Shown: positions 30,785-33,217 of the stretch, in pieces
Layout of the letters: every line of letters begins with the position of its first letter
How positions within the stretch are numbered: the stretch's first letter is position 1
Assembly: GCA_050250895.1 (NCBI GenBank)
Contig: JBFWNU010000001.1
Coordinates: 2,214,210 to 2,278,209 of the forward strand
DNA from: Vulcanimicrobiota bacterium
GTDB taxonomy: Bacteria; Vulcanimicrobiota; Xenobia; Xenobiales; JADMJV01
Length of the DNA stretch: 64,000 nucleotides
Direction: 5' to 3'
Program-made: the position numbers and the translations under genes
The notes under the pieces: generated by a model
Databases searched by the model: none
What the model saw: the letters and a program-made list of their open reading frames with translations, nothing else
What the model was told of the DNA's origin: nothing

Positions 30785-33217
30785 TTAGTTGTCTCCTGCC
30801 GCACCGTTGGTGGCGGGGATACGCTTGACCACCGATTCGAGCGGTGTGTCGCGTAGCAGCCGGGACAGGACATCGGCCACGCTGTCGCCTCCGAGGATGG
30901 CCAGGGGCGCCATCGATTGAGCCATCTTCTCGGCCAGGTGCCGGTCGCCGAAAGCTTGCAGCGCGGCTACCAGGTCGGGACTCACGGCCTGAGCCTTGTC
31001 GACGACCCCCTGCACCTCGGCGCGCAGCGCTTCCAACTGCTGCTCCTGGCGGCGCCCATCAAACTCGATATCCTGCTCGCTCTGGCGTCGCAAACGCGCC
31101 AGTTCGGCTTCTTTGAGGTCGGTCAGGGCCTTCTGGTCAGCCAGTTTGGTCTCGAGATCGCGGTTGCGCAACTCGGCCTCTGACTCGATCCGGGCCATTT
31201 CCAGAGCCAGTCGCTGCCGTACTTCAGCCTCTTCAAGCGCCAATTGTTTCTCGCGCGTCTGGGCCTCGGCGTCGGCGATGGCCTGCTTGATGGCTTCGGT
31301 CTGACGAGTCACCTCGAGGGTTTTGTGCTGGCGGGTCAACTCCACTGCCTGAGCCACCGTGCTGTGTTGAGCCCTGACCAGCATGGCGGCGATGGCGGCA
31401 TCACCGACCTGCAGATCGAGGACATCGACATCGTAGACGTGCATACCGTTCTCGTCGAAGCGACGTCCGGGGCGGTTGCCGGACTCGTCTGGCAGGCCCA
31501 GCACGGCATCCCGCACCACATCGACAGCGTTGCCATAGAAGCTCTCGACTCCCATGCGCTTGATCGCCTTGCGCAGCAATGACCGCAGATGGTCGGTGAG
31601 GTACTTGACATAGTTCTCGACATTGAACCACCTCTCGGGTTGACCCGTGAAGTTGACCCGGTACGAGACCGAGACGGACACCTGGCAGAGGTCGGCGGTG
31701 TCGGCTTTGACCACATCCGAGACCTGGTTGTTGAGCACCCGCAAGTAGACGGTGTGAAAAAGTTCCTCGTCGGACTTGGGGGTGCCGGTCGAGAGGGTGA
31801 CGGCCTCGAGGGACTCGGCGTATTCCAGTTGATAGCTGGTCGGGCCCACCAGCACCTTGCGCTGGCCCGAGCGACTCACCACCTGGATGGCGTAGCCGGT
31901 CCAGACATCGATGTTGACGGCTCCGTCATACTTGTCGTAAAGGGTGATGGTGCGAGGCGGGGTGAAGTTGCTGGAGCGATTGAAGCCGTCGCCGGCCGTC
32001 AATTCTTCCTTGGCCCGCTTCTTGGCCGGTGCCTGATCGGGGACGAGCATCTTCTCGCTTACGTAGTCGTTGAAGCCGCTCAAAGCCTTGAGGCCGAAAT
32101 TGTAGTCGAGGGCCTCCTGGTTGCCGGGAAACCACAGACCCACCTCTTCGGCGTCGAGCACCCGGCGCACCACCACTTCCTTGCGAGGGTCTGGCAGGAA
32201 CATACGAGGTCCCCGCACCAGGCTGATTTCACCGCTCATGCGGTCGAGCACGTAACGGGCTTCTCCGGCCGGAATGGCGACCGCGTAATGAATCTCGCGG
32301 TCGCCGTAGCGAATGACCGCGTGTTCGGGTCGGGGAAAGTAGATCATCTGCTCGCGTCCGGTGAGGAAGAGTTCTTCCCCCACCTTATAGTCACGTCCAT
32401 CCTCGCTGTAAGGGGTGATCACCTTGAGATAGATACCGCTGAGTTCGTTGAGTTCGATAGCCCGAAACTTGCGTTTGCCATGGCGCTCGACGAACCGTTC
32501 GGTGGGCCGGGGGAAGACTACCTGAGGGCCCTGGATGTAGCGCTTGTGACCGTCTTCGTCGAGCAGGATGCAGTATTCCAGCCGCTCGAGGGTGACCGCT
32601 TCCCGCACATAGTTGCCGCAATCCCCCTGCACCACCTCGAGTCCGGTGGGAGGAATGTAGAAGGCCACTTCGGTGCCTTTGATGACGAGCAGAGTGCCGG
32701 TAGTCAGGTCGGGCATCTCTTCGTCGGCCACGGCGCTGGGGTCCTTGGTCTTGATGACGGCCTTGCTCCAGTTGGCTCGAGCCGCCTCTTCGTTGTACAC
32801 CCGAACGACCAGATACTGATTCGAGCGCAGGTGGTGCCCCTGAATGACCCTGGCCACCTGGCCCGGCCAGAGGGGAAAGGTGGTCGGCCCGGGGATATTG
32901 ATCTTGCGACCGTAGGTCAGTTTGGGAATGGAGTTGGGCCCGCCGTGAGGGTGGACGGTGTCCCCCTCGGGACCCGGATTTTCGAGCACCACATACCAGC
33001 CTTCTTCTGCGAACGGAAAGGGCTGGATGGCTTGCTCGAGAGACGAATGGCGGAACCGGCGTGCGGGTTGGTCGAAGACCACGGGTTGGTCGGTGTTGGC
33101 CAGACTGGTCTTGTGGGGACCGACGTAAGGAACGACGTGTCCCTTGGTTTCGTCGAGGATAAAAGCGTACTCGTTGGGGGATAAGACCAGGTCTCTCTCG
33201 CGGCGATTCTCTGACAT
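30785..33217 (-). CDS. Major vault protein (MVP) homolog
   Basis: 810 aa. The N-terminus LVLSPNEYAFILDETKGHVVPYVGPHKTS parallels human MVP [28 protein letters not shown]. The shoulder region TADLCQVSVSVSYRVNF / ENYVKYLTDHLRSLLRKAIKRMGVESFYGNAVDVVRDAVLG parallels MVP TADHARLQLQLAYNWHF / [41 protein letters not shown]. It is followed by a long E/A/R/Q coiled coil (cap-helix-like). Confidence 0.75.
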   Translation of the reverse strand: MSENRRERDLVLSPNEYAFILDETKGHVVPYVGPHKTSLANTDQPVVFDQPARRFRHSSLEQAIQPFPFAEEGWYVVLENPGPEGDTVHPHGGPNSIPKLTYGRKINIPGPTTFPLWPGQVARVIQGHHLRSNQYLVVRVYNEEAARANWSKAVIKTKDPSAVADEEMPDLTTGTLLVIKGTEVAFYIPPTGLEVVQGDCGNYVREAVTLERLEYCILLDEDGHKRYIQGPQVVFPRPTERFVERHGKRKFRAIELNELSGIYLKVITPYSEDGRDYKVGEELFLTGREQMIYFPRPEHAVIRYGDREIHYAVAIPAGEARYVLDRMSGEISLVRGPRMFLPDPRKEVVVRRVLDAEEVGLWFPGNQEALDYNFGLKALSGFNDYVSEKMLVPDQAPAKKRAKEELTAGDGFNRSSNFTPPRTITLYDKYDGAVNIDVWTGYAIQVVSRSGQRKVLVGPTSYQLEYAESLEAVTLSTGTPKSDEELFHTVYLRVLNNQVSDVVKADTADLCQVSVSVSYRVNFTGQPERWFNVENYVKYLTDHLRSLLRKAIKRMGVESFYGNAVDVVRDAVLGLPDESGNRPGRRFDENGMHVYDVDVLDLQVGDAAIAAMLVRAQHSTVAQAVELTRQHKTLEVTRQTEAIKQAIADAEAQTREKQLALEEAEVRQRLALEMARIESEAELRNRDLETKLADQKALTDLKEAELARLRRQSEQDIEFDGRRQEQQLEALRAEVQGVVDKAQAVSPDLVAALQAFGDRHLAEKMAQSMAPLAILGGDSVADVLSRLLRDTPLESVVKRIPATNGAAGDN

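Follow-up and report, generated by a model that had tools for sequence, protein, structure and literature searches.

A bacterial homolog of the eukaryotic major vault protein encoded in a Vulcanimicrobiota genome

We analyzed a 64,000-nucleotide stretch of the genome of a Vulcanimicrobiota bacterium (contig JBFWNU010000001.1, positions 2,214,210 to 2,278,209), referred to below as the window. Its minus strand encodes an 810-residue protein that is homologous over its entire length to the eukaryotic major vault protein (MVP) and shares its fold. The original prediction, made from the sequence by eye, had proposed a full-length MVP homolog, and Pfam, a profile comparison with the PDB, hhalign, and AlphaFold2 modeling followed by Foldseek agree on this assignment. 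The gene product is probably a soluble cytoplasmic bacterial ortholog of MVP, one of a bacterial clade that is about 25% identical to the eukaryotic protein and known from Myxococcota and Cytophagales, and most likely self-assembles into a vault-like shell.

Homology to eukaryotic MVP and domain architecture

The shoulder domain of the protein matches the Pfam model MVP_shoulder (PF11978) with 93 bits against a cutoff of 25, and the alignment spans profile positions 2–118 of 118. The shoulder alone clears a Pfam threshold, as Vault_3 (residues 451–492) reaches 24.3 of the 28.8 bits needed. NCBIfam returned no significant match for the protein, and its matches to T3SS_TC (E = 0.11) and IteS (E = 0.48) were discarded as coiled-coil noise. 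The PADLOC models of anti-phage defense systems and the PHROGs models of phage proteins matched neither the MVP homolog nor its neighbors. A phmmer search against all PDB chains found major vault proteins only, from rat and human, with E-values of about 1e-10, and a profile built from 50 bacterial homologs matched PDB MVP with an E-value of 1.1e-25. BLASTP aligned residues 209–770 with residues 275–826 of human MVP (P0121) at 23% identity (E = 4e-12). When the bacterial alignment was compared by hhalign with that of 23 vertebrate MVPs, the match extended from the initial residues of both proteins into the cap-ring region, with 713 aligned columns (Prob 99.6%, E = 5e-24).

Three motif parallels to human MVP drawn in the original prediction were all reproduced by alignment. 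The N-terminal pairing of LVLSPNEYAFILD..GPHKTS with human ..GPKTY was recovered by hhalign and MAFFT projection. The shoulder pairings of TADLCQVSVSVSYRVNF with TADHARLQLQLAYNWHF, and of KAIKRMGVESFYGNAVDVVRDAVLG with its 28-residue human counterpart, were recovered by phmmer and BLASTP. The cap helix aligns with residues ~647–802 of the human cap helix in phmmer, BLASTP and hhalign.

The structure of the protein was predicted using AlphaFold2. A first run with 50 close homologs gave a predicted local distance difference test score (pLDDT) of 58, with only the C-terminal part well modeled and the N-terminal half unusable. It was replaced by a second run on a 118-sequence alignment, which included 50%-identity representatives and vertebrate MVPs. 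The second model has a mean pLDDT of 84.3, with values above 90 across the repeats and shoulder. It consists of stacked β-sheet repeats, an insertion in the eighth repeat (R8), an α/β shoulder resembling SPFH proteins, a single long helix, and short C-terminal helices of low confidence (Table 1). The helix corresponds to the E/A/R/Q-rich tail of about 120 residues that had been likened to the MVP cap helix, and is predicted to be continuous over 136 residues. The loop of residues 407–426 in the R8 insertion has a pLDDT below 50. The C-terminal segment is also poorly resolved in the model (pLDDT 32–58); its motif SPDLVAALQAF...MAPLAILGG is conserved within the bacterial family, and the hhalign alignment to vertebrate MVP reaches position 806 of the query.

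The best Foldseek matches of the model in the PDB are twelve full-length vault chains from rabbit, human and rat, with E-values of 1e-27 to 1e-34 and alignments that span the chain. They are followed by four chains of MVP R1–R7 crystal structures (E ~1e-15, template modeling (TM) score 0.52–0.54 relative to the target). A third tier is formed by the SPFH cage proteins flotillin, prohibitin, QmcA, HflK/C, stomatin and erlin. In the predicted structure, the large global root-mean-square deviation reflects a differing bend of a long multi-domain rod, not another fold.

The number of repeats was estimated from alignments. MAFFT projection onto human MVP opens two gaps of ~50 residues in the R2–R5 region, and profile self-comparison distinguishes two repeat flavors, one resembling R1, R6, R8 and R9, and the other R7-like with one further copy at residues ~134–189. 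The gaps and the two flavors therefore suggest about seven repeats, where MVP has nine.

The bacterial protein is thus collinear with rat and human MVP (PDB 4V60, 4HL8, 7PKZ, 9BW5, 9Z4W) from residue 1 to the cap-ring region. Both proteins share the order of β-repeats, R8 insertion at the identical position, SPFH-like shoulder, long cap helix and short C-terminal segment, and both lack a membrane anchor. In the MVP homolog, the highest Kyte-Doolittle hydropathy over 19 residues is 1.26, and the consensus of the bacterial family begins directly at R1. The lengths are similar, with 810 residues in the bacterial protein and 861–893 in the eukaryotic one. The proteins differ in sequence (~23% identity), in the absence of two R3–R5-type units from the bacterial repeat stack, and in the cap helix, which is 136 residues long in the bacterial protein versus ~155 in MVP.

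Table 1 Coordinates of the MVP homolog gene, its domains and adjoining features in the window
Feature	Position	Strand	Description and basis
Bacterial MVP homolog, complete coding sequence	30785..33217	−	ATG start, 810 residues and stop; open reading frame list, translation, Pfam, PDB matches, hhalign
MVP β-repeat region, N-terminal	31733..33217	−	Residues 1–495; ~7 repeats: R1, R2, a single R3–R5-type unit, R6, R7, R8, R9
R8 insertion	31928..32161	−	Residues 353–430; two short helices and a disordered loop; model and alignment to human residues 415–455
Shoulder domain, SPFH/band-7-like	31400..31732	−	Residues 496–606; PF11978 E = 1.7e-26, structural matches
Cap-helix equivalent	30992..31399	−	Residues 607–742; one 136-residue helix, DSSP on the model, A/E/L/R/Q-rich
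C-terminal segment, cap-ring equivalent, fold uncertain	30788..30991	−	Residues 743–810; short helices, pLDDT 32–58
Shine-Dalgarno sequence AGGAG	33224..33228	−	6 nt 5' of the MVP ATG; direct reading of the sequence
Intrinsic-terminator-like hairpin GAGCCGGC-TTCG-GCCGGCTC, then TTTTTGCGTG	30733..30762	−	22 nt past the MVP stop; terminator scan and sequence
199-residue open reading frame	30133-30732	−	Two hydrophobic segments, small membrane protein; coding-like composition at codon positions 1/2/3
Intergenic minisatellite	33295-33983		Between the FabH-like gene and the MVP gene; three 187-bp units of 27-bp subunits and a 14-bp x3 repeat

Distribution and conservation of the bacterial family

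Bacterial MVP homologs had been called rare in the original prediction, and the searches contradict this. A word-indexed search limited to 8,000 candidates matched at least 6,848 clusters at 90% identity with E ≤ 1e-3. The best 120 clusters are all full-length (~790–850 residues) and 57–75% identical to the protein described here, except for one partial sequence at 92%. For many of the clusters, JGI already uses the name "major vault protein". An exhaustive HMMER scan of 1.84 billion representatives at 50% identity yielded 1,378 proteins at E ≤ 1e-3, 996 at E ≤ 1e-10 and 655 at E ≤ 1e-30. A relative is carried by at least 413 GTDB species genomes (one genome per species) from about a dozen phyla, which is a lower bound because the scan used two peptide patterns only.

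The carriers are labeled as Eremiobacterota/Vulcanimicrobiota/Xenobia, Riflebacteria, Wallbacteria, Desulfobacterota (Desulfonema, Desulfococcaceae), Myxococcota, Cytophagales, Chloroflexota, Sericytochromatia, Planctomycetota, Gemmatimonadota, Schekmanbacteria and Moduliflexus. Among the cultured carriers are the Myxococcota Enhygromyxa salina DSM 15201 and Nannocystis exedens DSM 71, and Thermoflexibacter ruber of the Cytophagales. The best named relative is the partial protein, 92% identical, from a metagenome-assembled genome of "Candidatus Eremiobacteraeota". Among the carriers, many lineages are filamentous or gliding or have large genomes, which is a correlation only; a correlation of bacterial MVP with carrier traits, including surface motility, was described in a 2019 preprint (bioRxiv 10.1101/872010).

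Bacterial MVPs have been discussed in silico since 2012–2013 (PMC3595041; PMC3762200) and again in 2019 (bioRxiv 10.1101/872010). The proteins reported from Corallococcus, Plesiocystis, Enhygromyxa, Microscilla, Saprospira and Herpetosiphon (Daly et al. 2013, PMC3762200; Sokolskyi 2019, bioRxiv 10.1101/872010) belong to the same clade as the protein from the window. The latter is 55–60% identical over residues 1–800 to proteins of Enhygromyxa salina, Nannocystis exedens, Microscillaceae and Thermoflexibacter ruber. It also shares with them the ~25% identity to eukaryotic MVP given in these papers, and the similarity of the shoulder to band-7/SPFH domains. It differs in coming from an Eremiobacterota-like genome and has no other distinguishing feature. 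Homologs from Asgard archaea (Nat Microbiol 2026, PMC12962969) and phages (2023 preprint, bioRxiv 10.1101/2023.11.10.566534) likewise represent a prokaryotic or viral MVP fold with fewer repeats than in eukaryotes, described in silico only. The Asgard MVP is set apart by its published description, which gives five repeats and a modeled 10-mer cup (PMC12962969), compared with about seven repeats here.

No experimental study of any bacterial MVP was found in the literature, in line with their earlier description as functionally uncharacterized, and no paper among those searched ties Eremiobacterota to MVP. Bacterial MVPs are a widespread and previously described family, to which the Eremiobacterota-like genome adds one more phylum. 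The family is larger than a recent statement suggests, according to which MVP homologs are present in "only a few Bacteria".

The homologs from Eremiobacterota, Myxococcota, Bacteroidota and Chloroflexota are 58–64% identical to each other, and the mean column identity of the family alignment is 65%. The mean frequency of the most common residue is 0.53–0.76 per repeat domain and 0.35 in the cap helix, the composition of which is kept but the sequence is not.

Contamination with eukaryotic DNA, or a recent transfer of the gene from a eukaryote, is effectively refuted. Nothing beyond the eukaryotic fame of the family speaks for such an origin. The protein is 23% identical to human MVP but 58–75% identical to hundreds of bacterial proteins. 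The gene is located among ordinary bacterial genes, and its GC content at codon positions 1, 2 and 3 (0.68/0.40/0.78) matches their pattern. Furthermore, the identical protein is present, together with its downstream genes, on two independent short-read metagenome assemblies.

Proposed assembly and alternative explanations

MVP alone suffices for building vaults, and SPFH proteins form closed domes, according to published work. We hypothesize that many copies of the MVP homolog associate side by side, as MVP does and as do all SPFH-family proteins of solved structure. A thin wall would be built from the repeats, and a dome from the bundled cap helices. Two such domes may dock through their N-terminal R1 domains, which would produce a closed, hollow, vault-like shell. 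Since two repeats are missing, the shell would be shorter than the eukaryotic vault. The strong constraint along the repeats and shoulder is what would be expected of such a particle, because most surfaces would be oligomer interfaces. As no conserved partner gene was identified (see below), recruitment of any cargo would have to occur in trans, or the functional unit would be the shell alone, in which case it could serve sequestration or storage, or act as a stress-related scaffold. The suggestion of the original prediction that the gene may mark a vault-like nanocompartment is plausible. With greater reserve, we consider it possible that the whole clade builds hollow, closed "bacterial vaults" in the cytoplasm, a type of protein nanocompartment different from encapsulins and microcompartments, 55–65% identical across a dozen phyla, with cargo recruited in trans, and that these are the prokaryotic forerunner of the eukaryotic vault.

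Several observations weigh against a vault-like shell. The assembly state, symmetry and closure of the bacterial particle are purely inferred, and the count of about seven repeats is derived from alignment rather than from inspected coordinates. No single heptad phase dominates in the cap helix. The mammalian waist residues that join the vault halves are replaced (R9 by V, D39 by T, N40 by D, and R42 by P), and any waist contact would therefore need different chemistry. No counterparts of the vault components TEP1, PARP4 and vault RNA were found in the window: the ~50 open reading frames scanned contain no TROVE (TEP1), vWA, PARP or NACHT domain, and the search for vault RNA or Y RNA with Rfam at gathering thresholds gave tRNA only.

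The NAD+/ADP-ribose pocket of human MVP is also mostly altered. Of the thirteen human residues compared (R437, R504, K506, R507, P508, H509, R511, L517, D521, F522, W545, P565 and K573), only R437 and K506 have identical counterparts, R414 and K481, and the replacement of D521 by N497 is conservative. The other ten differ, including K573, replaced by D, and W545, replaced by V. The paper describing the pocket reports variable conservation of its residues and places it between two adjacent MVP chains. The NAD+/ADP-ribose pocket is a property of vertebrate MVP and does not define the family. With R493 and K/R498 as basic side chains elsewhere in the pocket, the altered shoulder pocket may be a differently built phosphate-binding site.

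These residues bear on the possibility that the protein forms no shell and is a soluble scaffold or a nucleotide- or ligand-binding protein. R414 and K481 are nearly invariant, and the basic residues R493 and K/R498 occupy neighboring positions, which speaks for such a role. We consider this improbable, however, as most pocket residues differ, and the whole length of the protein, including the cap helix, is kept in hundreds of lineages. Since the human pocket lies between adjacent chains, it presupposes assembly.

The protein could instead form only an open dome or ring over a patch of membrane or some other structure, as HflK/C, flotillin, stomatin and prohibitin do. This alternative to the closed two-halved vault is less remote but still unlikely. 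The SPFH/band-7 cages (HflK/C, QmcA, stomatin, prohibitin, flotillin, erlin) resemble the MVP homolog in having an SPFH fold followed by a long helix, which in these proteins bundles into a dome. However, they are anchored in membranes, lack the stack of MVP repeats, and are often paired with NfeD or FtsH. The MVP homolog contains neither a transmembrane segment nor an N-terminal extension. It retains a well-conserved barrel of repeats, ~495 residues long, with a homolog of R1. Its gene adjoins a FabH-like gene and a 199-residue open reading frame, and no NfeD or FtsH-type partner. We favor the vault-like shell, which may be closed.

Genomic surroundings and wider meaning

The original prediction had placed the MVP gene at the head of a minus-strand block continuing into a membrane protein and a chemosensory/c-di-GMP operon. 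The downstream genes are co-directional, as described. Beyond the 199-residue open reading frame, they encode REC, HD_5 (HD-GYP-type), a double hybrid histidine kinase, REC, CheW, CheR-TPR, CheA-REC, CheB and another hybrid kinase. If MVP led a functional operon that also comprised the genes for the small membrane protein, REC, HD-GYP and the chemosensory proteins, its shell would be tied to cyclic di-GMP (c-di-GMP) or chemosensory signaling. The 199-residue reading frame has a coding-like composition. The T-tract of the terminator-like hairpin runs directly into its ATG (30732), which leaves no room for a promoter of its own, so it may be expressed only through read-through. PilZ or histidine kinase genes are present near MVP in two other Eremiobacterota loci. 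A partial coupling of MVP with the downstream genes may exist in this one genome.

The operon is nevertheless very unlikely. The hairpin after the MVP stop codon is strong, with an 8-bp GC stem, a TTCG loop and T5 (TTTTT). The 199-residue reading frame has no match in Pfam, PADLOC or PHROGs, no counterpart in 72 related loci, and no visible Shine-Dalgarno sequence. These loci are the non-redundant set from the 80 closest relatives, in which neighbors were compared by six-frame calling of reading frames, noisy in GC-rich DNA, and all-versus-all BLASTP. No specific neighbor family is conserved among them: recurring families are the generic histidine kinase/REC superfamily (16 of 72 loci, within 3 kb in 8) and a spurious antisense shadow reading frame. 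The orientation of the neighbors is near random, with 39 on the same and 28 on the opposite strand upstream, and 36 and 31 downstream, and several relatives have both neighbors of MVP on the opposite strand. A strict terminator motif at most 120 nt from the stop codon was found in 15 of 70 homologous loci and is uninformative across phyla. The MVP gene behaves as a stand-alone gene, and tblastn found no second copy of it in the 64-kb window.

The spurious family originates from the strand opposite to MVP. A 531-residue reading frame at 31589-33184 (+) of the window, antisense to the MVP gene, was rejected as a non-gene, as its composition at the three codon positions mirrors the sense strand. 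Antisense shadow frames through the MVP genes of relatives are up to 976 residues long (locus L014, 9875-12805 (−)) and cluster as a "family" in 11 loci. Because their composition mirrors the sense strand, they are artifacts of GC-rich codon usage.

Genes for PilZ or REC-HD_5 proteins are located near MVP in several Eremiobacterota-type loci (L007, 7308-7706 and 11131-11523, on both sides; L001, 2496-3077), and the window itself contains c-di-GMP-related genes at 47747-48574 and 13006-14577. Such genes near MVP are not conserved family-wide and may just reflect their abundance in Eremiobacterota. The REC (106 residues) and HD_5 (~250 residues) genes at 28967-30039 (−) share a 4-nt overlap in the window and in one metagenome assembly, and are called as a single 357-residue REC-HD_5 gene in the sister assembly SRR27751815, which suggests a frameshift, strain variant or assembly error. 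The large chemosensory cluster (15990-28959) comprises an MCP, two-domain hybrid kinases, CheB, CheA-REC, CheR with a TPR tail, CheW and a REC-only protein. One of its products, 828 residues long, contains two complete REC-HisKA-HATPase modules in tandem.

Upstream of MVP, the window contains the repeat region that the original prediction had pointed out as preceding the gene. The region exists, but it is not part of the MVP system: it occurs at one spot in the window and is absent from the closest relative, in which only 87 nt separate the upstream gene from MVP. Its 27-bp subunit, CTCCCAAGCGAAGCG(CA/AC)GGGCTCCC, is present in 10 copies where none are expected by chance, and nowhere else in the window. 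The 14-bp x3 repeat at 33939-33983 overlaps the stop codon of the FabH-like gene. No signal of RNA structure was detected in the region (z = +1.6), and JGI metagenome contigs contain no exact match to it; with no second copy in the window, it was rejected as a component of the system. Short-read assemblies of the same organism break at this repeat, and a 217-residue reading frame inside it is a non-gene with flat composition across codon positions. The repeat is a genome-specific minisatellite.

The genes upstream encode a FabH-like ketoacyl synthase, a methyltransferase, a PTP-type phosphatase, an L,D-transpeptidase, a reductase, an asparagine synthase and a subtilase. Elsewhere, the window consists of ordinary chromosomal sequence with genes for Era, YceG, a 5'-3' exonuclease, a sigma factor, PilB/PilT/PilC, MCP, PilZ, and more HD_5 and kinase proteins. 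The type IV pilus genes at 58446-62684 (+) encode a PilB-like protein with an MshEN domain, and PilT-like and PilC-like proteins, and are followed by a sigma-70 family factor. A histidine kinase at 14621-16024 (+) is composed of an N-terminal domain similar to the ethylene receptor ETR1 (PF25487, 89 bits) and PAS-HisKA-HATPase domains.

The function of vaults is still unknown after 40 years, and their origin is debated, with an Asgard origin proposed in 2026 and a bacterial origin earlier. The gene described here reveals no function, partner or new architecture by itself, and the interest lies with the bacterial MVP family as a whole rather than with the present locus. The family is widespread and strongly conserved, and its cultured members among Myxococcota and Cytophagales would provide genetically tractable systems for studying an MVP shell without TEP1, PARP4 and vault RNA.

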